NCBI GenBank assembly: GCA_905178155.1
Contig: CAJINV010000031.1
Location: 1 to 64,000, forward strand
Length of the DNA stretch: 64,000 bases
Source of the DNA: Amoebophrya sp. A120
Lineage: Eukaryota; Protista; Dinoflagellata
Direction: 5' to 3'
The position numbers and the translations under genes were made by a program. This document shows, in pieces, positions 7,542 to 44,754 of this stretch. Under the pieces are notes generated by a model, which was given only the letters and a program-made list of their open reading frames with translations, ran no database searches and had not been told where the DNA came from. Each line of letters opens with the position of its first letter. The first letter of the stretch is position 1.

Positions 7542-8000
7542 CGCCTGTAGATCTAGGGATAGTATGTAAATATCACCAGTCGCAGAACTACAAGAAGACT
7601 TTGTATTCTAACAACCCGTAGGCATTTGTAGACACAAAAAAAAAAACCCGTAGGTCTTTCGGCACTACGTCTCCCGTGGTAGTCAGTTTGAAGGCGCATG
7701 AAATTCGTCATAAACAGCTGCTTATTTCCGGCCGGCTTTCCGCTGAAATAAGCACTCCGCCATCATGTTAGCCTGTGATGTATTTTAAATTTGCATTGAA
7801 AACATCAGAAATCCATGCATTGCGCGCTGTTTATGAACTCCGCAGGATCAAAGCCAGAGGCTATCTCTTGCTCCTGCTTGGCGTTCAGATTTTCTTGTAG
7901 CTCAGCCACACGCCCTGGCTTAGAACTGACTATAGTAACTTTATCGGGAAGTAGTGCCGCAGTGTTGTTGATGCTTTTGCTGCACCACACCTTCCACCCG

Positions 8001-14000: not shown

Positions 14001-14961
14001 TGGAAGAGCTGCGCTTTCCTTTTCCTTTCGAGTATTTCTCCGGCAGCTTGCTGAGCCGGAAGTACTCGCGCGCGCTGGGCTTGAAGAACTTGGTCTGCAG
14101 CTTGGGGCACTTTTCCTGGATCCGCCCGATGAGGTCGCTGTCCTCGTCGTCCAGCTCGGGAAAACCGTCGCGGTCTTCGTCAGAAGAAGCGTCGGCTTCC
14201 TCGGTGAAACGTATCGGCTCCGCGTTGGTTTTCCCAGAGGTGATCCCGTGTAGTCGGCGGGCGGTGTCCTGCCGGGTCAAATAGTTCTTCACCTGCTGGC
14301 ACTTCCACGGATCCACCCGCTCCACCAGATGCATCAAGGAGGTGCCGTCGAATTTGCTCTTGCACAGCAAGAGAAGCGACTGGATCAGCGGCGGCAAGTA
14401 GAAGTCGGGCAAGAACCACGCCTGCATGCCGAGGGGGCAGTTCTGGTGATGGCCAGAAGTCCCGTCTTGTCCGACCCAGAGACCGCAGATTTGGCACTGC
14501 TTGCCGGGTTCCATCATGAGCCGCCCGGTGTAATGCACGCCGTGGAGCCGCATGGCACTTTCAAAATTTTCGCAGGCATTTTCGAGCAGGCGAACTCCCT
14601 TTTCCGCCGGCATGTCGGCGCTCAGCCGCAGGGTCAAGATGGCTTTGAAGTACAAGAGCACATCATTGAACTCGCGTTCGTGCCCGAGCGTGATTTGGCG
14701 CGCAAGGCGAAGCAGCTCCTGGAGGTCGGTCACCGACGTGTCCAGATTCATGTACCCGCCGATGATTTTATACAGCTTTTCCTGCTGCTCCTCCTCCCAG
14801 CTCATAAAGAGCTCCATCGCCTTCTGGCCGTCGTTCTTCTTTGAGGCGGCGTAAAACATGGAGGCGGCTTTGTTGTACCGCTCCAGTTCGCCGGCCTCGC
14901 CGTTGAAAACCGGCGCGGACCATTTTCCGTCCTTCTGCTGCGCCAGCACCGGCTTCGACAT
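8001..14961 (-). CDS. gag-pol: Gag-Pol polyprotein of element A, about 2320 aa, with one frameshift in RNase H
   Basis: First internal ATG at 14961 (MSKPVLAQQK). CCHC knuckle CYACGAWGHKAENC; protease AILDSGAS; integrase HRKLGH..CSKCDLC, WSTDL, VDPGS, CERRG; RT KVRAIIQGFKD, DTPTAFL, VYGLADAPRAF, IHVDD; RNase H HTDASFA continuing after a 1-nt shift near 8528 into ISWKS..STKAGE..TDCMSL..QMADAMTK (ORF 8001-8429). Confidence 0.95.
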
Positions 14962-15400
14962 ATTGAGAGTGTAACAATCAATATTTCTATAGCGGTTTTG
15001 TAACACGTGTTGACCCAATACGCTCGCGCTCACTCCTCTCACCTTTGCCAATCTCAATCGCTGTGGGGGTATTAGCGCTAGCACATAGGGGGTAGAAGCC
15101 GACGCAAAACATATATATTTATAGTCGTTTTGTATAGAGTAGGTATAGGCATCCCGTAGGTGGAAAAGGCAACCCCGTAGGGTGACAGCCCGTAGGCTCT
15201 TTTCCCACCGGTCTAGGAGCGTGTCGTAGAACGCGTCACCAGTTACGAGGTACGAATTCGCAACCGCGCAATCGGTGTCCGCTGTTCCATCCGTGATTGA
15301 CGCCCAAGGCGGGCGGCAAACCGCGATGACGCCGGTGTTTGTGACGCGCGGGAGACTCAGTCGACCGCAGCCCCAGACCCGGCTAGGGATGCCGTTCCCT

Positions 15401-15418
15401 AACCTCTCTCCGCTACCA
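15401..15418 (-). other. Primer-binding site of element A, complementary to the tRNA-iMet 3' end
   Basis: Minus strand TGGTAGCGGAGAGAGGTT, 1 nt from the 5' LTR; pairs with ...AACCUCUCUCCGCUACCA, the A1-U72 pattern of initiator Met tRNA. Confidence 0.85.
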
Positions 15419-15419
15419 A

Positions 15420-15840
15420 TGTTGAAAAACGTGGATCGAGCCGAGTTCTGCTTCACAAAACGACGGGAGTACGGATCTACTATGAGGACCGAGATCAACG
15501 ACAAGGACCGAGATTCACGACTAGGCTGGGGATCTTGTAGAACAGGGTAAAACAAGGAGACAGCACTCGCGAGAGCGGTCGCGACGTTGGGAGCGGTCGC
15601 GAAGTAGCAAAGTATCTTGAGGGTCAGCATCGTGCTACAAAGCCGCAGGCTTATCCAGTACGACAGCAACAGACTCCCTCACAGAGTCTAGCTCTGGTGT
15701 GGAGATGGCTTTTTGGTATCAGGAATTGCAGAAAAGACCGCAAAACACTAAAACTCCGCAAGACGCCCCGTAGGGCGGTGGCAACCCGTAGGCTGGGTGG
15801 TTCGCTCAGAACACACCGCAAAAAGACACAGATTTTGACA
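15420..15840 (-). repeat. 5' LTR of element A
   Basis: Direct repeat of 2658-3078, followed on the minus strand by the PBS. Confidence 0.97.
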
Positions 15841-16516
15841 AAAAACTCAAAAAATATCGCATAAATTGCAACACTGACTCACAATTGTTTTACTTGATAA
15901 CAAAAAGCATAATGCAAAGTATTTCATTCCTTCCATATGGAAACTTGTCAACTTTCAACGTTTTTTCATTAAGTAAGTAATTTTTTTCATTTTCATTAAG
16001 ATGTAAAATTTATGGGTGATGCACGTTTTGTACTACCGTATTTGAAATGATCGGAAAAAAAAACATTAAAACTACATCCATTCTTAAGTGATTTGAAAAA
16101 TTTTTGAAATTTATACACCAGATTAAAAATTTTTAAATTTTTGAAATCTCTTAAAACGCTATATATTTGCGTATCTTAGCTCTAATCTACTTGAATGGAT
16201 AACGTGATTTCCAAAAGTAATCATCATTGAATTAGTTCGCAACAAACTTAGCCCATTTCTCAAGCTTCGTCAGAGGATGGGCAATTTTTATGATTTTTAA
16301 AAGATTTATTCAATGATACATACGTGAGCACTTTTAACATAATTTCCTTACCAAAATCTAAAAACTGCAGAAGAAACTATACCCATTGTATTCTTTTTGA
16401 ACTAAATTGGCCAGCGTTTGGCGATTTTTCATCTTAGGCGTATTTTTTTGATTCTTGCAAAATGGTGTCACGCATGCGGATTGTCCTTTATGATCTTGTC
16501 ACCTCTAAGCATTTGC

Positions 16517-19500
16517 TACCAGAAATGGATCACAATCCGATTCTGTAATGCGTGAACAACCGACAAAGATTCACCGATGAAACGACGTAGACGACGACGC
16601 GACGGACGACGGACGCCGGACGTATGGACGACGACACCGATGAGAAATCAGCTCGTCTTCTCCACAATGACCATGCGATTTTGTTGAAGAATAATTTTTC
16701 ACACGAAGTGAAAATCACGACCGAGCTGACCGATGATTTTGATTTTAGTTTTAGTTGTACAAGCGCAAGAGAAAAGCCGCCATATCCCGTAAAAATGCAA
16801 TAGAATTGCAAGATAGACGATCCGGAAAGGAAGGTCGTTTGTTATTTTTTGGATATTTTTCCTTGCGGGTACAGTGAGAAAAAAGTTGTATTCCGAAGAG
16901 CAAACAAGTTACTCAGCAATCCTATTCTGTTGAATTTGTGATGCGATTTATTCTTGTCATGGTTTGTTGTTACATCGGCATCATCGTCTGGAAAACAAGA
17001 AAAAAATCTCTCCATATTTCCTTAGTTTTACTTGCTTTTTCCTTCACCAAAAAAAATAATTGAATGCTAGATGCTCGCGTTAGTTCTCCTAGTGCCACAT
17101 CGTGCGAGAAAAAAAGAATTCCCTCGCTTCGTTGTCCACCGAAAAAACATTGATAACACAGAATAAGGCATAGTTTTTGTATAAGACCTGTTGTCCACTT
17201 GGCACGAAGAAAAAATAGAAGAAATTTCATCGATGTAGAGGTCAAATACTTTTGCATACTAGACTTACGTGAGGACAAAAAAAGATTATTGCGACAACGT
17301 GCTAGATGCTTTTTGCGATTAGTTGTAATTGTTTCAACCGTTCATCAAAACTTGATTTCACAAAAACTCCCCAAAACGACTGTTGTTCTTTCCGGTAGCG
17401 GCGCCAGCAGCGGACGACGTCGATCCCCCGGCGCAGCCCTTGAAGAAGGTTTTCTTTTCCATCATTTTTCCTCCATTCGACGTACTCGATTGTCCTGCTG
17501 TTAACCGCTCGTGGATGGCGTGGCGGTCCTTGCTGTCGGGGACAAAACCGCACAACTGGTCCGGGGTGACCGTTTCAAGCCACTGCAAAGATGTAAATTT
17601 ATCTTTGCCGCGTGGACCGCATTCGAGACTGGCCTGTTGGTAATCAAGTTTCCAACTGCCGTCGAGACTCTTGTATCCCGGGATCGTCAAATGACTGAGC
17701 TTGTCTATGCATGACAAACTCGCACTCATGGCCTTGTCCGTCTCTTCCTGCATCTCCTCGGAAACCATTTTTCCTCCCTTTTCGAATTTCCTCCACCGAA
17801 TAACTTCTTTCTCCAACACAGTGCATTGAAGCTGCGTTTTATCTTGGTAGTTCTGGAACCGCTCCAACAACTTGTCGTGCCGTTTGTTGCACAGCGAGAT
17901 GGAGACTGCGTGCGCCTGCACCTGTTGCTGGTTCTGCTGCCGCAAGAGAAGGATCTCTTGACGTTGCGTTTTAATCACCTTTTCACGCTCGGCAAGACAA
18001 GCATCAAGGTGACAGATTCCGCCTTCCGGGAAGTTGGAGGCAGTAATAGACTCGAGGCCAAGTCGTTCTCGGTCCGGCGATTCGACATTCTCCCGCGGGT
18101 GCTGGTGGAAAAGAAGTTTGTGGTCAGGCGGGAGCAAAAAGGTCGAAAGCGCTGCCGCTTTCTTACCGCACGGCGACAGGACGTAACATTCCACTTTTCC
18201 AACTACTTCCCGTCCCAAGCAGGGTTGTTTTACTCCCAACTTGTCGGCACCGACGATCTGCAGGCTGAGGTTGCTGGCATCCTCATACTTCCCCCGGAGA
18301 TAAGTGTATTCTTCCGGCTGGAAGAGATCGGCCGGAGGTTCCACGCGTTGGCGCTTCGCGGGTGACAACTCGATGTCATCCAGAGCGTGAAGCACGTAGT
18401 CGACGTCGTACTCCTGCATGGCCGCGGTGGAACCAGAGGGCTTGTCGGAAGAAACAGTGCTGTGGTACAGGGCAGCAACATCTTCTTGGTCGGAAATCAG
18501 ACCGGTGGAAGGCAAGGAGCGGATAGTCGGTCCATCATGAGCAGCGGGCACCGAAGAACTCGGCCCTTTTTCCCCGTGGTAATGACCCTTCTCCGCGACC
18601 AACTGCGGTAGCATTTCCAAATCCTTTCCTTTCCCTTTCTCGGTGGGCTTGGAGTTGTACGATTCTAAGTCACGCAGCACTTTTTCGTGTTCCTCGTCGA
18701 TTTCGCGGAGCAGAACACGGGCTTCAGCGTCACCGTCTTGCTCCACCGCTGGGGCAGCGGCGGGCGCTGCAGCTGTCACTTCTTGTTCTACCGCCGGGAC
18801 AACGACGGACGTAACAGCCGAAACTTCTACTGGAGCGGACGACGCAGGCAACGTGGGATTAGTTTCCGGCTCGGGGATGTTGGGGACAGCAATCACCGGC
18901 GGAATCCGGTAGGGTCCAGTCGACGGCAAGAGCCACCGATGCGGCAAGACCACCGGACCGGGCGAGAATATGGAACTCGATGGCACCGGGACTTCCACAT
19001 TAGCCGGAGCTTCCACATCAACCGGAACTTCCACCTCAGCCGGAACTTCCACTTCCACTTGCCCCTCGACTGCAGTCGCATCTTGCTCAACGACCGGAAT
19101 CTGAGCCTCCTCCTGAAATTCGGCAGCGGCCGGAGCCTGAATCTGCATCGGAGCTTGCACCACGGCAAGCGCCGGATGATTCGCGGGATTATCATCCGCG
19201 AGGAGGTCATCTTCCTCGTCTTCCGGGGCACTGCTTTCTTCTTCACCCGCATTGTTTTCGGCCACTCCGGCATTTTCGCCGCCAACACCGTCTTCCTCGT
19301 TCGCGATAGCCACTTGCTCGTCGTTGTGGTCATCTTCTTCTTCCACATCTTGTTCAGCTGCGGCTTCGACCGGCGGAGCGGGCTGAGCGTGGACTTCCTC
19401 GGCCGGGCGCGGAATCACAAAGTCGTCGCCGGACGACTCGGAATCAGAATAATTGACGCCGGCACGCGTAAATCTTCCACGCGCGTCTCTTCCCTGCCGG

Positions 19501-20722
19501 CCCCGTAAGCCAACACCGCGTCCGAGTTTCGGTGGCATCTCGATGTGTGCGGACGCGACGGCGAAGAGAAAAACAAAAAAGTAATTCATTAACAAATAAA
19601 ATTCAAAACTGTCAGCGGTATCGGTATATGAGGTGAAGCGTCGCAATAGGTCGTAAAGTATATAGGTGTTTCTGGTGAATTTCAAAGACAAGTAAAACTT
19701 TTTCTCAACTGTTGTTACCCGTAGGCGTAAAATCCTTTACCCGAAGGCGCTGTAAACCCGAAGGTATTTTCCCTGGAAATGTCGATTTAAAAACTGTAAT
19801 GATTAAAACTTCCCGATTGAAATTCTCGTGATATTTTTACTTCGACCTTACAGGCTGGTCAGGCTTCTACTAAAAAGAATAAGACTGATTGGCTTTGCGC
19901 CTTTGTTCTGTCGTACTTGAAAAACCTTTTACAGGAAGATAAGCCTGGATCTTTTCCGGTTGAAATTGCCGTGATAAAACATCAAAACTAAAACATAGAT
20001 CCCATTTTGACGGACGAGGCACGCTGCTTTACACTTTGTTAATCTTAAATTGGTGATCCTTTTGTTTCAAAACGACCGCATGATACCGCTGATCTTGAAG
20101 TGAAAAAATAACAACTAAAAAGCTGTAGCTGGAGATCAGCGGACTGCTATCCAGATGACCGTAACTGCACTGCTTCCACCATACGGCCACCGTCGCACCA
20201 CCGTACTCACCATGTCCGTCATATCACCGCACAAGTTGGCTTCCTTACTGTACAGCGTCAGGACCACGGTAAAAACTTCAAATTTGTCATTACTGCAGTT
20301 GCCACGCCGCGGACTGAATCCGCGCCGGGAATTCGGTAGCAACGGCATTTATCTTTCCGATTCCTGCTTCGCCTCGTGACACCTGGTCCCGGTATGCATG
20401 TAGTCCTTCTCCTTCTGCGAACCAAGTTACTCTTTCTCCTGTAATCGCACCTGGACCCGGTCCACCAAATTTGGTAAGCGCAGCAAACAAATTCTTCCGC
20501 TTACCGCTGTGGTGCAGCATCACCCATGAGTTTCTGTCTTTGCAGAAAACCCACAAAGGCTTGCGCAGCCGCAACTCTTCTGCATGCTCCACAATTTGTT
20601 TGATTCCAATTTCTCCCTGGTAAAACTGGACCTGTGGCGCAACTGAAGCAAAATAATTTGCAGCAGATGTAATTACTTCCAAATCACCCGGCTCAGTGGT
20701 GATTTTTGGTATATTTCCAATA
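16517..20722 (-). repeat. 3' LTR of element B (4206 bp, TA...TA termini)
   Basis: Plus strand begins TACCAGAAATGG and ends ATTTCCAATA. Both ends match the copy at 34474-37296, and identity stops exactly at the TSD, PBS and PPT. Confidence 0.92.
17358..19538 (-). CDS. LTR-encoded protein of element B, about 726 aa, unknown function
   Basis: Likely start MPPKLGRG at 19538 after a pyrimidine tract (frame open from 19691). Basic RGRQGRDARGRF N-terminus, long acidic/Pro region, NLS-like SPAKRQRV, coiled coil near the C-terminus. Confidence 0.8.
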   Translation of the reverse strand: MPPKLGRGVGLRGRQGRDARGRFTRAGVNYSDSESSGDDFVIPRPAEEVHAQPAPPVEAAAEQDVEEEDDHNDEQVAIANEEDGVGGENAGVAENNAGEEESSAPEDEEDDLLADDNPANHPALAVVQAPMQIQAPAAAEFQEEAQIPVVEQDATAVEGQVEVEVPAEVEVPVDVEAPANVEVPVPSSSIFSPGPVVLPHRWLLPSTGPYRIPPVIAVPNIPEPETNPTLPASSAPVEVSAVTSVVVPAVEQEVTAAAPAAAPAVEQDGDAEARVLLREIDEEHEKVLRDLESYNSKPTEKGKGKDLEMLPQLVAEKGHYHGEKGPSSSVPAAHDGPTIRSLPSTGLISDQEDVAALYHSTVSSDKPSGSTAAMQEYDVDYVLHALDDIELSPAKRQRVEPPADLFQPEEYTYLRGKYEDASNLSLQIVGADKLGVKQPCLGREVVGKVECYVLSPCGKKAAALSTFLLPPDHKLLFHQHPRENVESPDRERLGLESITASNFPEGGICHLDACLAEREKVIKTQRQEILLLRQQNQQQVQAHAVSISLCNKRHDKLLERFQNYQDKTQLQCTVLEKEVIRWRKFEKGGKMVSEEMQEETDKAMSASLSCIDKLSHLTIPGYKSLDGSWKLDYQQASLECGPRGKDKFTSLQWLETVTPDQLCGFVPDSKDRHAIHERLTAGQSSTSNGGKMMEKKTFFKGCAGGSTSSAAGAATGKNNSRFGEFL

Positions 20723-29310: not shown

Positions 29311-31191
29311 TCACTTCTTCCCACCTCCCTTTTTGCCACCACCCTTGGCCTGCTCACCCTTACGCTTCTTGGCGGCCTCCTGCGACAAACGCTGACTCTC
29401 CTTGTACACACGAGCGGCTTCCTCTGGTCCGACGCGCTGCTCAAATTTCTCCTTCATTGTCTTGTACTCTGCAGGAGCGTGGTAAAACTTGCACCGGCCC
29501 GTCTGCTCAATCTTCTTACAGCGGCCGCGCAGTTCGCACCACAGCTTACCGTCGGCTTCCAGAACAGCACCCTGCGGGACAACACGGCCGTGGTTGTTGG
29601 AATCGGTTCCGCCCGCACCATAATAGGAAGACGGATGATCATCACCCTTCTTATTCCGGTAATGGTTGCTGTTGTGGTTGTATCGCCGATAACCCAATTC
29701 CATGAGTTTTTTCTGGGCGTCGTCTTCCCGATTCCCCGTTTCTCCGATCAGGGAGAGAAGGTCGGTTAACGCAGAGTTTTCATTTTTCCCGGCCGGAGTA
29801 ATCGAGTCTTCGCGTCGTTTTTCGTCGTAAGTGTACCGAGCAGAGTCGGCACACACGCGCTCCACTTCTTCAACGAAAGTATCGTAGTCGTATTGCAAAT
29901 CCCGGATCCGGTGACTATTCAAAAGCTGGCGGGTGATGTGCGAAATACACAGCCCGCGCAATGCGATTTCAATTTTTGAATTATCGGATCTCTTACTCCC
30001 CGCGAGTTCCAACTCGCGATCAAAGATCACACCCAAAAGGACTACGAATTCCTTTGGATGGAGTCCATCCGGACGCACCACCATGGGAAGTTTGTTTTCG
30101 ATGCCCGCCTGTACGCCCTCGCGTCGCAACGAGTAGCGTTGTTGGAGGATGATCATTTTGTCGGATAAATTCGGCCCCGATCGATCGGCAAGCGCATGAT
30201 GCACGGGAGCGTTGCCAAAGGAACCCAACATCACCTTTTCGGCCAACTTGATCTGGTCCACTCCCGGAAGACGCAGGAGCGTGCTTGCCCACGTGAACAT
30301 TTGGGAATTCCAGCGCCGGAAGGAACTGATGTTCAACTTTGGCGGTTGTTCCAAGGTACGTAGTTCTACCTTTTCGAGTTCGGTCAGCGTGGTCTTGCCC
30401 GGTTGCGGCTTAATGTCCCGGAGAGACGCCCAGTCCAACTGGTCTATTCTCTCTTCTCCCCTCTGGTCAAACTTCGACTTCCGGTTCCCCTCGACTTCTT
30501 CCAGCCGACTGGCTAGCAGCTCGCACTTCTGGTTGTTTTGGTTCAGCAAATCCTGCAGCTCGGGCGACAAATTCAATGCCGCGGCGGCATGCGAGATCGA
30601 GCCCGGAGATGTAGAAGACGGAGTGCTGGCTTTGTTGTTCAGCACAGCTTCTTCGATCGGAAAAAGCTTCCGCGGAGCGACAAGCTCCGGAGACGAAGGA
30701 GCGGTCTCGCGCAGCAGGCCGGGCGGAGAACGGATGTCCCCTTTTCCGCTGGAAGCGAACATTCCATCAAAAAGATTACCATCGTAATCTTCCGCTCCGT
30801 ACACCGCGGCTGTTTCTTTCCCGGGCGAATTAACGTCCAGGCCGCCATGCGTTTTCCATTCTTCTTTCGAATAGTGGACTGGAGTCAAAGTTTCTCCCGA
30901 GTGCGCGCGACGATGTTTTTCCATCGCGACTTCGACCAACCGTTGCAACTCCTCATCGCGTGCTTTCTTCTTCTCCTTCTCCTTTATTTGATATGCCTGC
31001 GTATTGCAGATGCGATTAATGAAATCGAAGCAACAGGTTACCACTTTGTTACTTTTACTGGTAGAAAGTTGTAGCTTGCGAAGTTGTTTTTCGAAGTTGT
31101 AGCGTAGCGGGACAAAGAAGAAAAATCCACACGGATTTCGGGACGCTGAAGAAGGTAGTTGCTTTTCACAAATGTTCCGGCTGTCTTCCAC
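29311..31191 (-). CDS. gag: Gag-like protein of element B with C-terminal CCCH-type zinc finger
   Basis: Immediately upstream of pol. FRRWNSQMFTW capsid-like motif; CELRGRCKKIEQTGRCKFYH; basic GGKKGGGKK tail. Start uncertain (GTG 31191; first ATG 30924). Confidence 0.75.
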   Translation of the reverse strand: MEDSRNICEKQLPSSASRNPCGFFFFVPLRYNFEKQLRKLQLSTSKSNKVVTCCFDFINRICNTQAYQIKEKEKKKARDEELQRLVEVAMEKHRRAHSGETLTPVHYSKEEWKTHGGLDVNSPGKETAAVYGAEDYDGNLFDGMFASSGKGDIRSPPGLLRETAPSSPELVAPRKLFPIEEAVLNNKASTPSSTSPGSISHAAAALNLSPELQDLLNQNNQKCELLASRLEEVEGNRKSKFDQRGEERIDQLDWASLRDIKPQPGKTTLTELEKVELRTLEQPPKLNISSFRRWNSQMFTWASTLLRLPGVDQIKLAEKVMLGSFGNAPVHHALADRSGPNLSDKMIILQQRYSLRREGVQAGIENKLPMVVRPDGLHPKEFVVLLGVIFDRELELAGSKRSDNSKIEIALRGLCISHITRQLLNSHRIRDLQYDYDTFVEEVERVCADSARYTYDEKRREDSITPAGKNENSALTDLLSLIGETGNREDDAQKKLMELGYRRYNHNSNHYRNKKGDDHPSSYYGAGGTDSNNHGRVVPQGAVLEADGKLWCELRGRCKKIEQTGRCKFYHAPAEYKTMKEKFEQRVGPEEAARVYKESQRLSQEAAKKRKGEQAKGGGKKGGGKK

Positions 31192-31315
31192 TGTAGTTGT
31201 GTGTTTTACTGTTGGCTTTCCTGGTACGAACCGACTGCTTGTTTTAGTTGAGGACGTACCGAAAATTCCTTTTTGTTCTGCACGGTGTGTCCGAAATTAT
31301 TGGACGAAACCGAAA

Positions 31316-32176
31316 TCAGCTTGCGCTGAGATAGCCTTCCGAATCTGTACGACTACTTTCGCTAGGTTGAAATTGCACGTGGCGGTGCTCGTATTCCAGC
31401 GGGTACAGTCCACGACGAACGATGTCAGGGCAGAGGTAGAAACTGCCAAGTGCGTCTTGTAGACCGACAAACGGAGCGCCACTGTTACGAAGGTAGTTGA
31501 AGTATCGGTTTCTATTCAGATCGCCGAATCCGCTTTCTGCTTCTGGACGAATAAGAGGATCCGCTATGCCATCAAAATTTTCTTCCTCCGGTTGGTTGTC
31601 GTATACCGTACGGAAACTGGGACGAGGAGTTAACGGGCGAATGCACCGGTAAGCCACGAAATTCAGGTCGTGGGGCTTTGTCCAGGCGTAGTATCCGTGG
31701 CGGTTTTTATTGGACGGATGGTTCCTGTTGAGGACGATCAAGCAACTCTTCGAAAAGAACGCAATATGCTGATGGTTGCAGGCAAATGCAGCTTCTTCCT
31801 CCGGCAAGATTTGTTTTGCGCTGTGCGTCGGAAGTAATTCTGCGTATTCCAGCAGAGCGACCGTGACCAGCTTCTTCTTGCCTTCTCCTCTTCTAGGACG
31901 CAGCTGCGGTAGAACTACCAGAGCTTCTACTCCAGACCAGTGCAAAAATTGCAAGATGTGCGCGCCCAGAATTGTTTCGTAGTTTCCTACTGTTCCGACC
32001 AAGGACCTTGCTGCGAAACCGGACTTCAAATATTCCTGCGGTCCTGTTTTAGCAAGACCAGCGGGAAGCTGGTGTCGACGGTGCTGGTGCAGATCGTGAA
32101 GCTGTTTAAAGGCAGGGCTCTCGCAAAGACAATAAACTGGTTCGTTAATTTCTGCCGTAAGGGCTAAATTACCCAT
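31316..32176 (-). CDS. Element B upstream accessory protein, 286 aa, unknown function
   Basis: ATG-started intact ORF 15 bp after the previous stop; globular composition. Confidence 0.65.
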   Translation of the reverse strand: MGNLALTAEINEPVYCLCESPAFKQLHDLHQHRRHQLPAGLAKTGPQEYLKSGFAARSLVGTVGNYETILGAHILQFLHWSGVEALVVLPQLRPRRGEGKKKLVTVALLEYAELLPTHSAKQILPEEEAAFACNHQHIAFFSKSCLIVLNRNHPSNKNRHGYYAWTKPHDLNFVAYRCIRPLTPRPSFRTVYDNQPEEENFDGIADPLIRPEAESGFGDLNRNRYFNYLRNSGAPFVGLQDALGSFYLCPDIVRRGLYPLEYEHRHVQFQPSESSRTDSEGYLSAS

Positions 32177-32191
32177 GCGCTACTGCCGTTC

Positions 32192-32707
32192 CTAGTTCTC
32201 TGGCTCGGGTTCAAAATCCCAGCTGCGGCACGTAGTCGCGTTTTTGTATCCGGATAGGGAGAGCGGGTGCGTTTTGTACTGGTCTGCTTGTAGAATTCGC
32301 TTCGTAGGAATGTGCTGCGGAATCAATTCTACTTCTTGGGCGGTTGGTCCTAGCGAGATATCCAGGAAGTTGTATTTCTCGCCAAGCTTGACGTTGCAAA
32401 AAGCGTAGTGCAAACTGCCGGCGCGGCTGAACCAAACTGCTAGTGGTGCGAAGCGAGCGGCAATTCGAATTTCCAAGAAGTGAAATGCAGTGAAACACTC
32501 CTCGGCGTAGAATCGTTCAAGGGATTTCTGCTTTTTCCTATCTTTGTTCCTCCACCGGAGATGTTCACAGCCCCCGGACTGACAACGAAGGACACAGAGT
32601 TCGTGCTGGATTGTATCTAGAATCCAGATGGCGTTTTTGTTTCTTCTTCCGGTTTTATCTTTCACCCACCGGCTCAACGGTTTCTCACCAATTATCTCCC
32701 ACCACAT
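32192..32707 (-). CDS. Element B upstream accessory protein, 171 aa, unknown function
   Basis: ATG 7 bp after the stop of the RING ORF; Cys/His cluster HELCVLRCQSGGCEH. Confidence 0.6.
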   Translation of the reverse strand: MWWEIIGEKPLSRWVKDKTGRRNKNAIWILDTIQHELCVLRCQSGGCEHLRWRNKDRKKQKSLERFYAEECFTAFHFLEIRIAARFAPLAVWFSRAGSLHYAFCNVKLGEKYNFLDISLGPTAQEVELIPQHIPTKRILQADQYKTHPLSLSGYKNATTCRSWDFEPEPEN

Positions 32708-32714
32708 AAAAGGT

Positions 32715-34160
32715 TCAAGCCGTGAAGTTTTGTATTAAACTATTGACCAATTCCCTGCAAATCGGACAGCGCGCGTCGTGTTGCAAAGCCCGCTCTGCGC
32801 AAGGAATACAACAGACGGCATGTCCCGTGCGACCGTGTACAAATGTGGCGTCGGACTCAACTTCCATACACACAATGCATGGATTATGCAGTCGGTGTGA
32901 TGCAGTAGAGTGGGCAGGAGACGGTGGTGGAATCGGAGTGCGGTACTGGTTCAACGAAGAGCTGTTGTTGTTTACTTGTCTCGGTGAAATCAAACCCTGC
33001 ACTACTCGGCTGAAAAAACCCCCGCGAGACGGAGATGACTGCTCGATTTCGTTTAAAGAGCTGGCAGCTTCAGGCAAGGCTGAAACAGGATTCGAACTGC
33101 TGCTGCTCTGTTCCTGACGCTGTTGTTCTTGTCGTGCACGAAGATCGGCAATCAAAATGCGCTGTCTCTCGATAGCAGCCGGGTTGTCTCTAAACGGTTG
33201 GTCAGACAGACGAGCGGCTTGTTGCTGTAAGCCGAAAGTTTCCTGTAGAAATTGTGCTGCTCGGCCGTTTTGGAAATGGAGGACTCTTGCTTGACGGTTT
33301 CGTTCCTGTTCTAATTCCTGCAAGCGAGTAAACTGACGATCGGCCAAATTTTCTATTGTTGTCTCCGTCGTGGCGTTTTGTGCCGGATTTTCCACCGCAG
33401 CTTCCTCGGCAATAGCAGCAATTCTGTCGCGCGGAGTGTATTCGGGTTCTTCACGGCGCGGTAAAATTGTTCTCCAGGAAGGGTCTCTTCGTTCGCGCTG
33501 CAGACGGTGTCTCTCGCTCTCCTGGTTTATTTCAAAAAATGTCCGTGGATTTTGTTGATTTCCCCAGAATGCGGGAAGACGGTCTGCCGGTCCTGGTACT
33601 GCTCTGTCTGCTCTGCTCGGTGTTACGACTTGACAAAAGCGCGGATGCTCGTACAAAAACGTGTCCACGTCGAGATTGCGGCGTGCCGTATTTTGTATTC
33701 TTTCCTCTGCAGCCGTGCGGTCCAAAAACACAGTCAGAGCTTCTCGATCACCAATGACGTTCGTGAAGTTGTGGCTGATATCGTTGGAATTTCGTTCTAT
33801 TAGATCCCGGAGATCGTCGCCGTCTAAGAGTTGTCTTGCCCCTCTCACTACTTGTGCTGGTTGACCGGTGCGAAAGCGACGGTAGTTTGGGAAGCGAAGA
33901 TCTGGACGGTTCACCAAGTTGCAGTACTGAATGGAGCCGATCAGATCGCGTTCTCCGCTTGGTAGATAGTTGTTGTGCCGGTCGATAATAATTATCACTC
34001 CTCTTCTCCAGTGTCGTTGATGCCAAACAGGTTCAAGATTTCGGATATCCGTGTGCAATTGCTCGAGATTCAGGTAGTTATAAAGTAAGCCGTTCTCGAT
34101 GGTAACAGTAGGCGGAAAGTAATCGTGACGTGGTTGATCAGGAGCTTGCTGGTTTTGCAT
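32715..34160 (-). CDS. Element B upstream accessory protein with C-terminal MDM2/MDM4-type (C2H2C4) RING finger, putative E3 ubiquitin ligase
   Basis: PCIVCMEVESDATFVHGRTGHAVCCIPCAERALQHDARCPICRELV at the extreme C-terminus. First ATG at 34160, preceded by TTTTTTTACCTCCAG. Confidence 0.85.
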   Translation of the reverse strand: MQNQQAPDQPRHDYFPPTVTIENGLLYNYLNLEQLHTDIRNLEPVWHQRHWRRGVIIIIDRHNNYLPSGERDLIGSIQYCNLVNRPDLRFPNYRRFRTGQPAQVVRGARQLLDGDDLRDLIERNSNDISHNFTNVIGDREALTVFLDRTAAEERIQNTARRNLDVDTFLYEHPRFCQVVTPSRADRAVPGPADRLPAFWGNQQNPRTFFEINQESERHRLQRERRDPSWRTILPRREEPEYTPRDRIAAIAEEAAVENPAQNATTETTIENLADRQFTRLQELEQERNRQARVLHFQNGRAAQFLQETFGLQQQAARLSDQPFRDNPAAIERQRILIADLRARQEQQRQEQSSSSSNPVSALPEAASSLNEIEQSSPSRGGFFSRVVQGLISPRQVNNNSSSLNQYRTPIPPPSPAHSTASHRLHNPCIVCMEVESDATFVHGRTGHAVCCIPCAERALQHDARCPICRELVNSLIQNFTA

Positions 34161-34461
34161 ACGTCGCGCTGGAGGTAAAAAAATTTTTGGTAGTATCTGC
34201 TTCTTTTTAACACGCGGATCGAACGAAGGCAATCATTTCGTCGATACCAAGGTTTATTGTTTTTCTTGCTTCTTCTAGTTGATCGACAATGAAATCTTGC
34301 AGCGCGGAAAGCATAAAATTAGACAAAAATCACCTGGGTGATTTGTCTTTACAGACAAAATCACTTTCCTGCTTCTTGCTCAGCACAAACTGGTGCGGTA
34401 TGTACGACAGGTAGTACTTGCTGCTCTTCGGTTTTCGACGTGACGGAGGTTTACTAGGCTC

Positions 34462-34473
34462 TGGGGCTCACCA
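34462..34473 (-). other. Primer-binding site of element B (non-Met tRNA, possibly Trp)
   Basis: Minus strand TGGTGAGCCCCA directly abuts the 5' LTR; complementary to a tRNA ending ...GGGGCUCACCA. The tRNA identity is a guess. Confidence 0.7.
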
Positions 34474-35314
34474 TACCAGAAATGGATCACAGTCCGATTC
34501 TGTAATGCGTGAACAACCGACAGAGATTCACCGATGAAACGACGTAGACGACGACGCGACGGACGACGGACACCGGACGTATGGACGACGACACCGATGA
34601 GAAATCAGTTCGTCTTCTCCACAATGACCATACGATTTTGTTGAAGAATAATTTTTCACACGAAGTGAAAATCACGACCGAGTTGACCGATGATTTTGAT
34701 TTTAGTTTTAGTTGTACAAGCGCAAGAGAAAAGCCGCCATATCCCGTAAAAATGCAATAGAATTGCAAGATAGACGATCCGGAAAGGAAGGTCGTTTGTT
34801 ATTTTTTGGATATTTTTCCTTGCGGGTACAGTGAGAAAAAAGTTGTATTCCGAAGAGCAAACAAGTTACTCAGCAATCCTATTCTGTTGAATTTGTGATG
34901 CGATTTATTCTTGTCATGGTTTGTTGTTACATCGGCATCATCGTCTGGAAAACAAGAAAAAAATCTCTCCATATTTCCTTAGTTTTACTTGCTTTTTCCT
35001 TCACCAAAAAAAATAATTGAATGCTAGATGCTCGCGTTAGTTCTCCTAGTGCCACATCGTGCGAGAAAAAAAGAATTCCCTCGCTTCGTTGTCCACCGAA
35101 AAAACATTGATAACACAGAATAAGGCATAGTTTTTGTATAAGACCTGTTGTCCACTTGGCACGAAGAAAAAATAGAAGAAATTTCATCGATGTAGAGGTC
35201 AAATACTTTTGCATACTAGACTTACGTGAGGACAAAAAAAGATTATTGCGACAACGTGCTAGATGCTTTTTACGATTAGTTGTAATTGTTTCAACCGTTC
35301 ATCAAAACTTGATT

Positions 35315-36941
35315 TCACAAAAACTCCCCAAAACGACTGTTGTTCTTTCCGGTAGCGGCGCCAGCAGCGGACGACGTCGATCCCCCGGCGCAGCCCTTGA
35401 AGAAGGTTTTCTTTTCCATCATTTTTCCTCCATTCGACGTACTCGATTGTCCTGCTGTTAACCGCTCGTGGATGGCGTGGCGGTCCTTGCTGTCGGGGAC
35501 AAAACCGCACAACTGGTCCGGGGTGACCGTTTCAAGCCACTGCAAAGATGTAAATTTATCTTTGCCGCGTGGACCGCATTCGAGACTGGCCTGTTGGTAA
35601 TCAAGTTTCCAACTGCCGTCGAGACTCTTGTATCCCGGGATCGTCAAATGACTGAGCTTGTCTATGCATGACAAACTCGCACTCATGGCCTTGTCCGTCT
35701 CTTCCTGCATCTCCTCGGAAACCATTTTTCCTCCCTTTTCGAATTTCCTCCACCGAATAACTTCTTTCTCCAACACAGTGCATTGAAGCTGCGTTTTATC
35801 TTGGTAGTTCTGGAACCGCTCCAACAACTTGTCGTGCCGTTTGTTGCACAGCGAGATGGAGACTGCGTGCGCCTGCACCTGTTGCTGGTTCTGCTGCCGC
35901 AAGAGAAGGATCTCTTGACGTTGCGTTTTAATCACCTTTTCACGCTCGGCAAGACAAGCATCAAGGTGACAGATTCCGCCTTCCGGGAAGTTGGAGGCAG
36001 TAATAGACTCGAGGCCAAGTCGTTCTCGGTCCGGCGATTCGACATTCTCCCGCGGGTGCTGGTGGAAAAGAAGTTTGTGGTCAGGCGGGAGCAAAAAGGT
36101 CGAAAGCGCTGCCGCTTTCTTACCGCACGGCGACAGGACGTAACATTCCACTTTTCCAACTACTTCCCGTCCCAAGCAGGGTTGTTTTACTCCCAACTTG
36201 TCGGCACCGACGATCTGCAGGCTGAGGTTGCTGGCATCCTCATACTTCCCCCGGAGATAAGTGTATTCTTCCGGCTGGAAGAGATCGGCCGGAGGTTCCA
36301 CGCGTTGGCGCTTCGCGGGTGACAACTCGATGTCATCCAGAGCGTGAAGCACGTAGTCGACGTCGTACTCCTGCATGGCCGCGGTGGAACCAGAGGGCTT
36401 GTCGGAAGAAACAGTGCTGTGGTACAGGGCAGCAACATCTTCTTGGTCGGAAATCAGACCGGTGGAAGGCAAGGAGCGGATAATCGGTCCATCATGAGCA
36501 GCGGGCACCGAAGAACTCGGCCCTTTTTCCCCGTGGTGATGACCCTTCTCCACGACCAACTGCGGTAGCATTTCCAAATCCTTTCCTTTCCCTTTCTCGG
36601 TGGGCTTGGAGTTGTACGATTCTAAGTCACGCAGCACTTTTTCGTGTTCCTCGTCGATTTCGCGGAGCAGAACACGGGCTTCAGCGTCACCGTCTTGTTC
36701 CACCGCTGGGGCAGCGGCGGGCGCTGCAGCTGTCACTTCTTGTTCTACCGCCGGGACAACGACGGACGTAACAGCCGAAACTTCTACTGGAGCGGACGAC
36801 GCAGGCAACGTGGGATTAGTTTCCGGCTCGGGGATGTTGGGGACAGCAATCACCGGCGGAATCCGGTAGGGTCCAGTCGACGGCAAGAGCCACCGATGCG
36901 GCAAGACCACCGGACCGGGCGAGAATATGGAACTCGATGGC
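35315..36941 (-). CDS. Second copy of the LTR-encoded protein (5' part lost in the assembly gap)
   Basis: Near-identical translation to 17358-18984. Confidence 0.75.
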
Positions 36942-37041
36942 NNNNNNNNNNNNNNNNNNNNNNNNNNNNNNNNNNNNNNNNNNNNNNNNNNNNNNNNNNN
37001 NNNNNNNNNNNNNNNNNNNNNNNNNNNNNNNNNNNNNNNNN
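36942..37041. other. Assembly gap (100 N)
   Basis: Run of N. Confidence 1.
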
Positions 37042-37349
37042 AATTTGGTAAGCGCAGCAAACAAATTCTTCCGCTTACCGCTGTGGTGCAGCATCACCCA
37101 TGAGTTTCTGTCTTTGCAGAAAACCCACAAAGGCTTACGCAGCCGCAACTCTTCTGCATGCTCCGCAATTTGTTTGATTCCAATTTCTCCCTGGTAAAAC
37201 TGGACCTGTGGCGCAACTGAAGCAAAATAATTTGCAGCAGATGTAATTACTTCCAAATCACCCGGCTCAGTGGTGATTTTTGGTATATTTCCAATATTTG
37301 CCTTTATAAGGCTGCTATTTGCTTATATTGTCCCTGAGAATGCTGGTAT

Positions 37350-38480
37350 GTGCGGAGCTTTTCCTCGGTGCAGCTTCTATGAGCGGAGATTTTCCCTTCA
37401 CATGTTCCCATGTGCAGAAGTTTTCTTATATGACACTGCCAGGTGTGGGGATTTTCCCTCACTTTCCCTCAAAAGGCTTCCAGGGGCAGAGATTTTCCCT
37501 TGTAGGGAAGCAACGGTCGGAGTTTTTCCCTTGCGGGGCCGTTGGGTGCGGAGGTTTTACACTGTGGCACGACCGGCGGCGGAAAGTTTATTGTGTGGGG
37601 CCAATAGCTGCGGACATCTTACCTTGTTGGGCCGCCCGCTGCGGAGATTTTTCCTTGCGGGACCACCCGCCCGGTCCGGCCTACCGCCCCTTGGCGGGGG
37701 CGGTCGCGAGGGTCAACTCCCGCGCGCCCCCGCAAGGGTCAGCTCCCGCGTGCCCCCGCGAGGGTCAAGTCCCGCCCTTTCCGGGGGCCGGACGGCGCCC
37801 CGGGGCCCCCGCAGGGGCCAAATCCTGCTTCGGGCGGGGGCCGGGCGCCCCGTGTCCCCCGCAAGGGCCAAATCCCGCCCCGGGCGGCCCCGGGGCCCCC
37901 GCGTGGGCCAGATCCTGCTTGGGCCGGGGGCCGGGCGCCCCGAGGCCCCCGCAAGGTTCAAGTCCCGCCCTATGCGGGGGCGGCCGCGCGGGTCAAATCC
38001 CGCGCGCCCCCGCAAGGGTCAGATCCCGCCTCGGGCGGGGGCCGGGCGGCGCGGCGCCCCGAGGCCCCCGCAAGGGCCAAATCCTGCTCCGAAGGGCGGC
38101 CGGGCGCCCCGGGATCCCCGTAGAGGCCAAATCCCGCGCGCCGCCGCGCGGGTCAAATCCCGCCCCGGCCGGGCGGGGGCCGGGCGACGCCCCGGGGCCC
38201 CCTTAGGGGCCAGATACTGCTCCGGGCGGGGTCCGGCGCCCCGGGGCCCCCGAAAGGGCCAAATCCCGCCCTTGGCGGGGGCGGCCGCGAGGGTCAAATC
38301 CCGCGCGCCCCCGCCAGGGCCAAATCCTGCTTCGGGCGCGGGCCGGGCGCCCCGGGGCCCCCGCGAGGTGCGGCGTACCGCCCCCCCCCCCCCGCGCTAG
38401 CGAGGTGCGCGCGCGAAGCGCAGGGTGCAGGGCAGGCCCCCGCGCTAGCGCGGTGCGCTAGCGAGGTGCGGCGACCGCCC
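37350..38480. repeat. Degenerate tandem repeats: GAGATTTTCCCT-type units, then a very GC-rich minisatellite (CCCCGCAAGGG[T/C]CAAATCC core)
   Basis: Recurring cores every ~25-60 bp; the ORFs across it are repeat translations. Confidence 0.8.
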
Positions 38481-39054
38481 GGGCACCGGGGCCCGCGGCT
38501 CGCTGGCCCCGCGCGCGCAGAACTAGCGCGTTTTCGGGTCGGCCCCGGCGCGCGCCGCAAATTGCGGGGCATTGCGGTCTTCGGCACAAGACGCGCTCCC
38601 TTTTTAAAGCCCGGGGCCGAGGGGCCGCTCGGGGAGCCCGCCTGCCGCGGACCGCGCCCCATGGCGCGACCTTCTTTCTCAATTCTTAGGGGCCATTGCT
38701 GTCCCTGTTTTGAGAACATCATTCCGCCGCCCAATTTTCGTGCCGGCTTTAAGAGGCTCAATACCGAACGGCATTTCATTTTGACAAGGGTCCTTAGACG
38801 GCAGCGCGTCTCTGGGCCACTTAAAATATCGCGCGCCCCGATCGGGCGGGGCCTCCGCTGTTCTTCGCCCGAGGCACCAATCGTGCTGGCTTCGACCTGC
38901 TGCGTGGTTGGCTTCCAACACTGTGCCTCGATGTTCCCGTTTGTGTCTCGTTAATTTTTCTAGTCTCCGAAGTACTTACTAGCCTTGGCGCCACTTCTTC
39001 ATGTAAGTCCCCAGGAAGCCACCTCGGCACGTCTCGTTTTGGAGCTGCTCCTTC

Positions 39055-40295
39055 ATGGCGCTGCTTGTCGGACAGTCGATTGCCACGAGCTCTCGCTCGG
39101 TTGCGTGTGCCGCTGCGGCGCACCGTGCACTAGGTACAACACCCCGGCGTGAAGATTTTCGTCTTTGGTTGACCCCCACGACTGCACCGCATCGCCAGCA
39201 GCGCCGAACGATGTGGTGGGACCCCTCCCTGACCCGCAAAAATGGGAAGCCCGCCATTTCGAAAACGCAAGATCTGTACGTGTCCAAAGACATTCCGGTG
39301 GTCCTGCTGAAGGACGTTCCTAAATTAGGCGTGAAAGGCCAGATTGTTCACGTCCGGCGGGGCTATGCGCGCAACCTGCTGGTACCGTCCGGCGTCGCGG
39401 TGTACGGTGCTCTTTGGGAAAACGTCGACCGCTACGCCGACCCCGCCGTCATCTCGGCTGCCGAGGCCACGGCGCGTGCGATTGAAGCAGAGCAAGAGGC
39501 CCATCCCTTCGACTGGATTGACGAGTACATCATTCGGTTTTGTTTGTTCGCTCGGTGCTCAAGTCTACCTTCTTGCTGCCAGTTGTTTCTTTTTTCTACT
39601 TGGGTTGAATAAACACATCACTCCAACTGCAAATCGTAAATAGGCGTTCGTGTCCTCCCTGCTCGCCGAATAGCTATTTAAGTATTTATCACAGGATTTC
39701 CCTGCGTCTCGTGCGCACAGTGCGGAACCAGCAAACGGGCGCGCTGCAGGACCCGCTGACCGTCTGGGAATTTTTGAACATCCTGTCGCGCGACCACGAA
39801 CTCGACCTTTTGCCTGAGAACCTGCTGGATCTCCGGGACCGAGGCGAACCACAGGGTGTTGTGCCGGACCCCGCGCTGGACCCGTTTCACCAGAGCGCCG
39901 CCGTGGAAAGTCCACAACCAGACGGGACTGCCCTCGCATCGGGGGAGCGGTTGCCGCTCGATGGTGGCGGCCCCGGCGGAATGCACGAGCCGTGCTACCA
40001 GCTACTAACCACCGCGGGCCGACACCTGGTCAACCTGGAGATTCCCTTCAAAGTGAAGGCCCGGCGGTACTGCATCGCGGTAGACATTGTGTCGCAGACC
40101 GAGGAGATGGCGGCGCTCCGGGCGCGGGAAGAAGAGCGCATCAAGAACCAGAAGCCGCAGTTCCTGGTGGGAATTCGCAGTGGCGAAACCATTGGCCGGC
40201 AGATGCAGATTGACTACGAGGAGCTTGAATGGCTCGAGGACGAGGGAGACAATGCCCGGGCGCGCTCTGGCCCGGGAGGGCGCTCTCGGCCGTAG
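39055..40295 (+). CDS. MRPL9: Organellar (likely mitochondrial) ribosomal protein bL9; exons 39055-39536 and 39695-40295
   Basis: [36 protein letters not shown] is the L9 N-terminal signature. Transit-peptide-like N-terminus. GT-AG intron 39537-39694 joins the two ORFs in frame. Confidence 0.9.
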
Positions 40296-40818
40296 TGGAA
40301 GAACGTCGTGATTGCTGCTACATGGTGTACATGCGCGAACAACAATTTTTCGCATTCAACTACACGACGTACCCTTGCTACGTGTACGTATTCACTTTTG
40401 CTACGGATGACACAGCACTTTTGGTCAGGTTCCTCAAGAGATCCAGATGATAATACAGTGTGGCTGTTTAATGCTAGAAAGACATTTCTGCAGCAAGACT
40501 ACACACCCTGAGCATCGGTACCCTCGCCGTTTCCTCTGGTGCGCAGGCAAATCGTCGGTGGTGCTTTCTAGTACTCATCTGAACTGCCATGCCAGTTTTT
40601 TTTTCCACGTCAACACACACTGCTTGCCAAAAGTTTTGGACTACAAGAAGATCGAGCTTTTTGTTTTTTTTTTAACGCGTGAGACTGCTGCATTATTTCG
40701 GAACCGTAACGCTTGCACGAAAAATGTCTCACGCCGCCCTCTGGCTACGTACATATTTTTTTTGATGGCGAATTGATAATGACGATGACTTGATACAAAA
40801 CTACGTATATCCCTAAAA

Positions 40819-43800: not shown

Positions 43801-44217
43801 GAAGATCTGAATAGCCACGTCTACTACGAAGGAGTCTACGAGGTGCACCACACGAACGAGAAAATGATTGTGGACCATTTAAAGAAGCTGGACCCGGTGC
43901 TCCGGCTACTGGAAACCAACCACCCGGAGAAGCAGTGGCCCGGGCACCGGAACGGCGACTTCGGGGTCGGCGTTGACGGGTACCTCGTGCAGCGGGAGGC
44001 CATGACCAAGGACTCCAGCCGCCGCGCCGTCGCGTTCTGCCAGACCGCAAAGGAGGAGGAAACGGCGATCATGTACCAACTACGGGAACTGTCCGACAAC
44101 CTCAACCACTACTACCACCACTACATGGACCAGGTTCCCTCGAAAGTCAGCCATTTCTTGGAAACGGTGTTTCCCTACTTCGATCTAAGCCGCGTCGACT
44201 TCGGGTCGCAGGGGTGA
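40819..44217 (+). CDS. Hypothetical N-terminally anchored protein, possibly glycosyltransferase-like; exons about 40819-41357, 41626-41683 and 41911-44217
   Basis: Hydrophobic N-terminal segment; VAVCLRG..DVYLVTS and YEHVVLSRLDVTFF motifs. Exons join in frame after removing the introner plus one direct repeat and a possible GT-AG intron 41684-41910. Confidence 0.65.
41358..41620 (+). mobile_element. Introner/MITE-like intron, copy 1
   Basis: TATC...GATA ends; inverted repeats AAAAACGTCCCCACCCCATAG / CTATGGTGTGGGGACGTTTTT; flanking 5-bp direct repeats GTGTA/GCGTA; internal similarity to 45047-45318. Confidence 0.85.
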
Positions 44218-44754
44218 AGAACTGTTTTACTTATTCGTTGTGTAAATGCATCTTGATCTTCTTCGTTCTCGCTCTCGCAGGAGCGAAAGTGCCATGCGTT
44301 TTGTTCGAGCGCGTCGTCGGTTTGGGGATCATCGCGCACGTTGCGGCCCGCGTAGATCCGTTTCAGGGAGTAGTGTGTTCTTGCAAACACAAAGATGCTG
44401 TGGGTCGTCAGATGAACCAAGATGCTGCAAAGCGTCGAAAAATTTTGCAAGAAGGAGCTGGTGGCTCTGCGTGTGTTAAGTAAGATTAAACACATTTTGA
44501 ATATAAAACTGGCTGATCAGAGTTTCCTAGGTTAAGCTTTGCTGGTTTGTTTTGCACAATGAGATCGGCACAACTTCCACTTCGCGCCGCTGGACGTGGA
44601 AAGAAGTTTTCCACGTGCAGCTGTAACGCTCGAGACAAGAAAAGCGTATAGGACTTTAGCAGAATCAAAAAGATTCCTACGTGTCGTGTTCATCTTCACG
44701 TTACGAAGACCGACTAATCTATTTCCCCTCTATCATCTTTGAAAAAAAAAGCAG

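Follow-up and report, generated by a model that had tools for sequence, protein, structure and literature searches.

A ~22-kb copia retrotransposon of Amoebophrya with a macrodomain in pol and a RING-bearing open reading frame among its cargo

The DNA analyzed here (the window, positions 1 to 64,000 of contig CAJINV010000031.1 of Amoebophrya sp. A120) contains a very large long terminal repeat (LTR) retrotransposon of the copia order, which lies on the minus strand from 37296 to 16517 and carries a macrodomain within pol as well as several extra open reading frames (ORFs). The assembled element is 20,780 bp long, or 22,163 bp if both LTRs are taken as 4,206 bp. This is the length of the 3′ LTR (20722-16517). 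The 5′ LTR (37296-34474, starting with TATTGG and ending with TCTGGTA) is interrupted by a scaffold gap of 100 N (36942-37041) and about 1.4 kb of it is absent, which leaves only two pieces for LTR-LTR comparison. In a self-comparison, 16517-18984 and 34474-36941 were 99.55% identical over 2,468 bp, and 20468-20722 and 37042-37296 were 99.2% identical over 255 bp. The element is flanked by a perfect 5-bp target-site duplication (TSD), GCAAA, at 37297-37301 and 16512-16516. A primer-binding site (PBS), TGGTGAGCCCC (listed as TGGTGAGCCCCAGAG, 34459-34473), immediately adjoins the 5′ LTR with zero spacer; no tRNA matching it was found within the window, and two viral pattern matches proved not to be tRNAs. 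The earlier note on this DNA had described an apparently intact element of about 22 kb with TSD, PBS and a given order of ORFs, a picture that holds, and all of these parts were located on the minus strand. Its polypurine tract is also present but weak, being a 10-nt purine run within pol (20729-20738) that ends 6 nt ahead of the 3′ LTR.

The LTR termini, TATTGGAAAT...ATTTCTGGTA, form an imperfect inverted repeat and read TA..TA rather than TG..CA. The same TA..TA termini were seen at two independent insertions, and the TG..CA ends usual for copia were found at neither. Integrase normally cuts after CA, so that TA..TA ends are unusual for such an enzyme, and copia elements with ends other than TG..CA are rare, being known from plant surveys. 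The element would escape standard LTR finders in which TG..CA ends are a requirement.

Between and within the LTRs, the sense strand holds ORFs of 481 (RING481, 34160-32715), 171 (32707-32192), 286 (32176-31316) and 537 codons (30924-29311), the last ending in a single UGA that is followed by 3,006 open codons of pol (29310-20290), which extends 433 nt into the 3′ LTR. A 743-codon ORF (19589-17358) lies in the LTR. Three extra ORFs thus stand ahead of gag and one more within the LTR. The three upstream ORFs are intron-free and tightly packed, ORF171 starting 7 nt past the stop of RING481 and ORF286 starting 15 nt past that of ORF171. Given the local composition, stop-free runs of 171, 286, 481 and 743 codons are expected by chance with probabilities of 2e-4, 8e-7, 6e-11 and 2e-16 per start, respectively. 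The earlier note placed the LTR ORF in both LTRs; it is complete in the 3′ copy, but only codons 213-743 are assembled in the 5′ copy.

We infer that the 537-aa ORF is gag from its position, from a CCCH finger at its C-terminus (a weak zf-CCCH match, E 2.7, rather than a CCHC knuckle) and from its basic tail. These features fit the gag call of the earlier note, although no Pfam gag profile matched. Pol is in frame with gag beyond the single UGA, and since an ATG (29124) lies 62 codons past this stop, an internal pol start is possible. A hairpin after the UGA was not significant: z was -1.8, equal stability being reached in 11 of 200 shuffles, and ranged from -1.0 to -1.8 when four lengths were tried. 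The copia element Tca2 of Candida albicans likewise has a UGA between in-frame gag and pol, and makes pol from the gag-pol RNA by a route left unresolved in that report, which describes structured RNA past the UGA and a non-canonical bypass and, in its accessible text, mentions no accessory ORFs (PMC2194720; here and below, statements on cited papers refer to the accessible parts of their text).

Along pol we recognized, in order, a NADAR-like domain, a macrodomain, a protease, an integrase, a C2H2 finger, a reverse transcriptase (RT) and RNase H. The region around D583 (27384-27025) bears a DNC motif and is presumably the aspartic protease, as judged from knowledge of retropepsins and from the position of the motif; no protease profile matched it. 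The integrase (26151-25435) has an HHCC finger (992-1023) and the triad D1052-D1109-(35)-E1145; its match to rve (0.0034) lies below the cut-off, and it is 36% identical to Amoebophrya protein P0151. The copia-type RT (23079-21925, with an HVDD motif and lineage-specific insertions) matches RVT_2 (PF07727) at residues 2078-2240 with E 3e-8 and 33.8 bits, above the cut-off of 31.6, and RNase H (21297-20905, residues 2615-2734) was delimited by motifs and by alignment to P0151 and P0152. Only four RT relatives were found among 7,997 scored candidates. The best over RT-RNase H were two proteins of Ty1/copia elements of Amoebophrya sp. AT5.2 (EukProt P0151 and P0152; 33-34% identity, 33% over RT-RNase H), which have the same unusual insertions and also match in the integrase, and which point to an Amoebophrya-like syndinian as the likely host; these elements are known as fragments only. 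By domain order and RT type the element is a member of Ty1/copia (Pseudoviridae) with non-canonical ends, and it has two direct LTRs, a PBS, a weak polypurine tract and a 5-bp TSD. The description in the earlier note of an organization like that of a complex retrovirus was overstated. No ORF was found to be env-like or transmembrane and the integrase precedes RT, unlike in the complex Retroviridae with their env gene and RT-RNase H-integrase order. The cargo lies upstream of gag.

The macrodomain announced in the earlier note proved to be real. It spans about residues 320-494 of pol (175 aa, 28167-27643). A search of 1.84 billion representatives gave 702 relatives at E<=0.001, of which the best 150 are 28-45% identical to it. 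A model built from a 52-row alignment reached a predicted local distance difference test score (pLDDT) of 83-97 in most 10-residue blocks. Its best fold matches were DarG, Poa1p, BT1257 and TARG1 (Foldseek E 7e-8; VIA Z 17.8, root-mean-square deviation 2.5 Å over 146 residues), with viral and macroH2A domains ranking lower, and the family profile matched BT1257 and SCO6735 best. Residues H343, N346, Q402, G454 and G456 align with H24, N27, Q85, G126 and G128 of SCO6735, and Q402 occupies the position of SCO6735 Q85, DarG K80 and TARG1 K84. In an alignment of 91 rows (the element and the best 90 of 150 matches) this glutamine was kept in all 91, and the five active-site positions in 84 to 91. 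Judged from the modeled fold, the glutamine and the His, Asn and GxG loop residues, the domain belongs to the ALC1/TARG1/DarG class and is of the SCO6735 type; it shares its fold and its H, N, Q and GxG residues with SCO6735 and BT1257, and differs from them in being embedded in a retrotransposon polyprotein. SCO6735 removes both ADP-ribose linked to thymidine in DNA and mono-ADP-ribose on protein, and changes of Q85, N27, H24 or G128 abolish its activity (PMC9411070). Because the residues needed by SCO6735 are kept, the macrodomain is likely to be an active ADP-ribose hydrolase, with thymidine in DNA or acidic residues in protein as the expected substrate. In a tree of the 91 rows the element stands on a long branch with weak support, and no long polyprotein with a related macrodomain was found among 2,361 candidates of 1,619-5,152 aa. 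The best relatives (P0001, P0002, P0004, P0010 and P0029) are metagenome proteins flanked by long low-complexity stretches, one of them with three copies of the macrodomain, and may come from other eukaryotic mobile elements.

Ahead of the macrodomain lies a degenerate NADAR-like domain (about residues 181-305, 28584-28210), which the earlier note had overlooked. It scored 4.6e-5 (24.2 bits) against Pfam NADAR, under the cut-off of 35.1, and 0.023 against TIGR02464; PHROG 1017 was also below its cut-off. A hidden Markov model (HMM) of 10 NADAR proteins, with the query excluded, matched this stretch alone among 562 window frames, with 16.6 bits compared with at most 6.3 in 1,000 shuffles. NADAR enzymes undo the ADP-ribosylation of guanine in DNA and RNA (PMC11543638, PMC11833690); NADAR antitoxins and the phage protein AdfN count among the closest known systems. 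In the domain of pol the EH..A.K block is absent, the position of E125 is Asn and that of W133 is Cys. With catalytic positions lost, the NADAR-like part is probably dead or serves for binding only. Natural NADAR-macrodomain fusions in the same order occur in 3 of 47 macrodomain relatives scanned; these resemble pol in the NADAR-like neighbor and differ in that the NADAR catalytic residues are lost here. Since such fusions exist, the NADAR-macrodomain block was likely acquired as a unit.

The first upstream ORF could also be assigned. The C-terminal 55 residues of RING481 form an MDM4/MDM2-type RING (residues 426-474; MDM4 RING, E 9e-12; Pfam zf-C3HC4_3, 2e-8) with an HGRTGH motif and a short aromatic tail, placed at the extreme C-terminus as in MDM2/MDM4 ligases; the remaining 420 aa gave no match. 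ORF481 is thus a predicted E3 ubiquitin ligase, and the E3-type RING of the earlier note holds at the level of these matches. No reliable match was found for ORF171, ORF286 or ORF743 in Pfam, PHROGs, NCBIfam and PADLOC. ORF171 also had no Atlas match, and for ORF286 there were no homologs among 846 candidates and none in plasmids, PDB sequences or NCBIfam. The single-sequence model of ORF286 (pLDDT 30) was unusable and its fold search meaningless. An ESM lead (0.85, with a low recognition score) from ORF286 to a PIF/Harbinger DDE_Tnp_4 nuclease was not supported: there was no Pfam match, and with an HMM of 15 bacterial DDE_Tnp_4 members, a weak test, its score did not exceed that of shuffles. 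ORF743 has an acidic, low-complexity N-terminal half and a hydrophobic stretch at its start. No clear transmembrane stretch was seen in any of the five non-pol ORFs (maximum 19-aa hydropathy 1.37), which leaves no env candidate. Splice or trans-splice acceptors ahead of each ORF were also rejected, the pyrimidine tracts being no better than background, and none of 10 window proteins was present in the exact-match protein collection.

Two public DNA runs of one sample contain sequence of the element; the assembly itself may have been made from this sample, which therefore does not count as a second organism. In run X1, 203 contigs covered all 30 bins of 16300-34520, evenly across all ORFs. Besides the flank of this locus, two loose contig ends occurred in X1 at the exact LTR borders; they mark a second insertion (a full element or solo LTR) with CAGGC before the LTR end and again after the LTR start, and the same TA..TA borders. 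As the LTRs are 99.5% identical and there is a second insertion, the element is recently inserted, multi-copy and recently mobile. The copies differ by a few percent only, and variant contigs make up about one third of total depth, a weak sign by which the family seems to be low-copy. Nine length variants were found among the copies. Seven of them shift the frame and all seven fall outside ORFs, although ORFs occupy 87% of the stretch; this skew is given without a p-value, because the AT-rich non-coding parts were in part counted double. In ORF743, length changes among copies are in-frame only. At 34200-34300 a deep contig (runs X1/X2) differs at many leader sites and then exits the element, which suggests a related subfamily or a non-autonomous partner with a common 5′ region.

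For selection we compared the displayed variants (40 of 58 sites in 31250-34300 and 40 of 423 in X1, of which 25 and 33, respectively, fall in ORFs) with the synonymous share expected under neutrality for an identical set of base changes. Pooled over the three upstream ORFs, 16 of 25 variants were synonymous against 8.2 expected (p=0.0014). Taken singly, ORF286 had 7 of 10 against 3.1 (p=0.014) and RING481 7 of 10 against 3.8 (p=0.04), and no new stop occurred among the 58 coding variants, where 1.9 were expected. This enrichment of synonymous variants among copies indicates that the upstream ORFs are under purifying selection, as shown for RING481 and ORF286. Copies retain the accessory ORFs, although ORF171 and ORF743 are not significant on their own. 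Cargo kept under selection in a selfish element points to a host defence that it faces.

We tentatively favor a reading in which the macrodomain and the RING protein would act together to protect replication intermediates against ADP-ribosylation by the host and against restriction linked to ubiquitin. The element itself would replicate as an ordinary copia. A tRNA almost certainly primes reverse transcription at the PBS, with the integrase making the 5-bp duplications, and pol is very likely made past the gag UGA, as it is in Tca2, either by readthrough or from the internal start at 29124. Given its place immediately before the protease, the NADAR-macrodomain block may well be cut out and packaged, which would set it free in the particle beside RT and single-stranded complementary DNA (cDNA); some retroviruses similarly package a dUTPase from the gag-pro junction. 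There the macrodomain would remove ADP-ribose that host enzymes had attached to Gag/Pol or to thymidines of the cDNA. The RING protein, whose ORF comes first on the transcript, would attach ubiquitin to a host factor that acts in restriction or silencing. That the target of the macrodomain is defensive ADP-ribosylation, and that the RING protein degrades such a factor, is plausible but far from secure. Bacteria are known to defend themselves against phage by DNA ADP-ribosylation, and from a DarG/TARG1-class eraser in a copia polyprotein one would predict that protist retrotransposons are restricted by ADP-ribosylation, possibly at DNA bases; in the literature we found no role for DNA ADP-ribosylation against eukaryotic transposons. 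Macro and NADAR domains in polyproteins of eukaryotic RNA viruses have been proposed to serve counter-defence (PMC9503650). A bolder version, which we consider rather improbable, would have an anti-DarT module of phage style, made up of NADAR and a thymidine-ADP-ribose hydrolase, captured and packaged with RT to clear single-stranded cDNA in dinoflagellate-lineage cells that ADP-ribosylate retroelement DNA, with RING481 and the two orphan proteins as an operon-like early counter-defence cassette.

A number of observations weigh against the counter-defence reading. Function is assignable in two of five cargo units, the macrodomain region and the RING, and not in ORF171, ORF286 or the LTR ORF. 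SCO6735 V25 and K89 are not kept in the macrodomain, and the three variants displayed at its C-terminal edge, the sole ones displayed in the region, are all non-synonymous. In the NADAR-like domain the equivalents of E43, K50, E125 and W133 (P. nicotianae numbering) are lost and the N-terminal half was modeled poorly, and the protease motif, DNC, is atypical. The variants come from few contigs of one sample; among them the synonymous share was not significantly raised in ORF171 (2 of 5 against 1.3 expected, p=0.40), ORF743 (5 of 10 against 2.9, p=0.13) or pol (10 of 23 against 7.4, p=0.17), and three of the four LTR-to-LTR differences in ORF743 are non-synonymous. One contig skips 23650-29993 (most of pol and the end of gag), leaving RT-RNase H and the upstream ORFs outside the skip, and is an internally deleted derivative; another exits the element inside ORF286, and some copies are thus defective. 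RNA runs X4-X6, of the same species label, gave no reads and X7 gave no contigs; since presence of the organism in these runs was not demonstrated, they are no test of expression.

The scaffold gap in the 5′ LTR, and the fact that no single contig spans the element, might suggest that the structure arose by faulty assembly, by segmental duplication or by nesting of unrelated insertions. The perfect TSD with the PBS at the border, the second insertion with the same ends and a different TSD (CAGGC), the even X1 coverage, the single coding strand and the lack of internal LTR or terminal inverted repeat pairs make this scarcely credible; coverage and second insertion rule out the misassembly or segmental duplication against which the earlier note had cautioned. 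It is improbable, too, that the extra ORFs and domains are roleless, recently transduced passengers, open only through the youth of the copies. Such an origin would agree with the small divergence between copies, with the lack of significance for ORF171, ORF743 and pol alone and with the decay of the NADAR part, and transduced genes are known in single LTR copies (PMC7264820). It accords poorly with the synonymous excess in RING481 and ORF286, with ORFs free of stops and frameshifts, with the close packing of three intron-free ORFs (gaps of 7 and 15 nt), and with a macrodomain fused in frame whose active-site residues are kept despite identity of at most about 45% to its best 150 relatives.

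The cargo could also be functional and serve other ends. In the main rival, which we regard as possible though on balance unlikely, it has a non-defence housekeeping or targeting role: the macrodomain would clean up ADP-ribose metabolites or repair marks on cDNA and integration gaps, or would guide integration by reading ADP-ribosylated chromatin, and the RING protein would turn over the element's own Gag/Pol or regulate expression. The catalytic-position glutamine is common to SCO6735 and ALC1 homologs (PMC9411070), and for phage Macro/NADAR domains, soluble ADP-ribose derivatives have been proposed as the main substrates (PMC9503650). Moreover, the same fold class holds the reader ALC1 and the metabolite enzyme Poa1p, and purifying selection fits this role equally well. 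Targeting domains such as chromodomains, however, sit on the integrase C-terminus, whereas the macrodomain sits before the protease, and its partner is a NADAR remnant, a combination characteristic of conflict systems. Finally, the cargo might serve the parasite, with the RING and LTR proteins as effectors or regulators during infection of the dinoflagellate host and the element as a low-copy, semi-domesticated carrier. The likely host of the element is an intracellular parasite, the family seems low-copy and ORF743 starts with a hydrophobic stretch. Yet a T-rich run may be all that lies behind this stretch, the other ORFs show neither a signal nor a transmembrane stretch, and the near-identical LTRs and second insertion speak for recent mobility, so that we hold this reading to be very unlikely.

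The closest published systems share single traits with the element. Burro/GYPSM1 of planarians is also very large, with a huge polyprotein bearing added domains, an upstream accessory ORF and ubiquitin-related cargo; its ubiquitin- and apoptosis-related domains were proposed to meddle with host systems. It differs in being a gypsy element of >30 kb with thousands of copies and an env-like region, and the accessible text mentions no macrodomain, ADP-ribose or copia (PMC6431247). Ogre, a plant gypsy element, is likewise large, with long LTRs, extra ORFs and cargo upstream of gag (PMC6431247); Ogre and the orchid AlkB gypsy elements measure 16-25 kb, compared with ~22 kb for the present copia (PMC6431247, PMC9289625). 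The closest functional parallel is the 25-kb orchid element, which encodes an active m6A demethylase that erases a host nucleic-acid mark; it differs in being gypsy and in that the mark is m6A on RNA (PMC9289625). In the same plant screen, the 15 recurrent extra domains were all confined to gypsy, and 4,811 copia consensus sequences had none of them (PMC9289625). Extra ORFs without known domains were reported in 582 plant copia elements (PMC6317226, PMC7264820). Epsilon-like endogenous retroviruses of fish, too, are reverse-transcribing elements that occasionally carry a macrodomain ORF, but they belong to Retroviridae and hold it in a separate ORF (PMC4977317, citing Basta 2009). Dinoflagellate retrotransposons capture DNA methyltransferases, whereas their copia elements do not (PMC5890265), and the accessible text of the paper on two Amoebophrya genomes treats LTR elements only in passing (PMC7789003). 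Nothing on cargo-bearing copia elements was found in the accessible parts of PMC12130899 and PMC11889832. No related elements were found in viral contigs, and metagenome contigs yielded only one distant copia (25%).

The earlier note knew of no described copia with this combination. We found none with macrodomain, NADAR or RING cargo in the literature, Repbase, GyDB, REXdb, subscription papers and supplements (the PMC9289625 domain chart and the PMC7789003 repeat figure) being outside its scope, but giant cargo-bearing LTR elements, retroviral macrodomains and a copia with gag-UGA-pol are in print. Because Burro cargo, fish macrodomain ORFs and the Tca2 UGA have all been described, the novelty is the combination of cargo in a copia and not the principle. 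Copia architecture is extended by the size of ~22 kb, the three ORFs before gag, the 743-codon LTR ORF and the TA..TA ends.

The remainder of the window holds further repeats and genes. A second copia element (2658-15840, minus strand) lies 680 bp away and is unrelated (24% RT identity). It has 421-bp TG..CA LTRs that are 96% identical, the TSD AAAAA and the PBS TGGTAGCGGAGAG, and encodes a 2,430-aa gag-pol with RNase H continuing in another frame (8004-8399). Two extra sense ORFs between its pol and 3′ LTR (5567-6538, 324 aa; 3176-5008, 611 aa) showed no Pfam match and no similarity to the cargo of the large element, and cargo-bearing copias may be common in this host. A GC-rich repeat array (37600-38400) adjoins the 5′ LTR of the large element. 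Satellite arrays with periods of 43, 66, 88 and 341 bp, one with an 887-N gap, occupy 54300-60400. Host genes lie on the plus strand at 39007-53784, including ribosomal protein L9 (~39.0-40.3 kb) and an intron-free, 1,208-codon SF1 (AAA_11/AAA_12) helicase (50158-53784), and unannotated long ORFs are present at 41911, 47422 and 60794.

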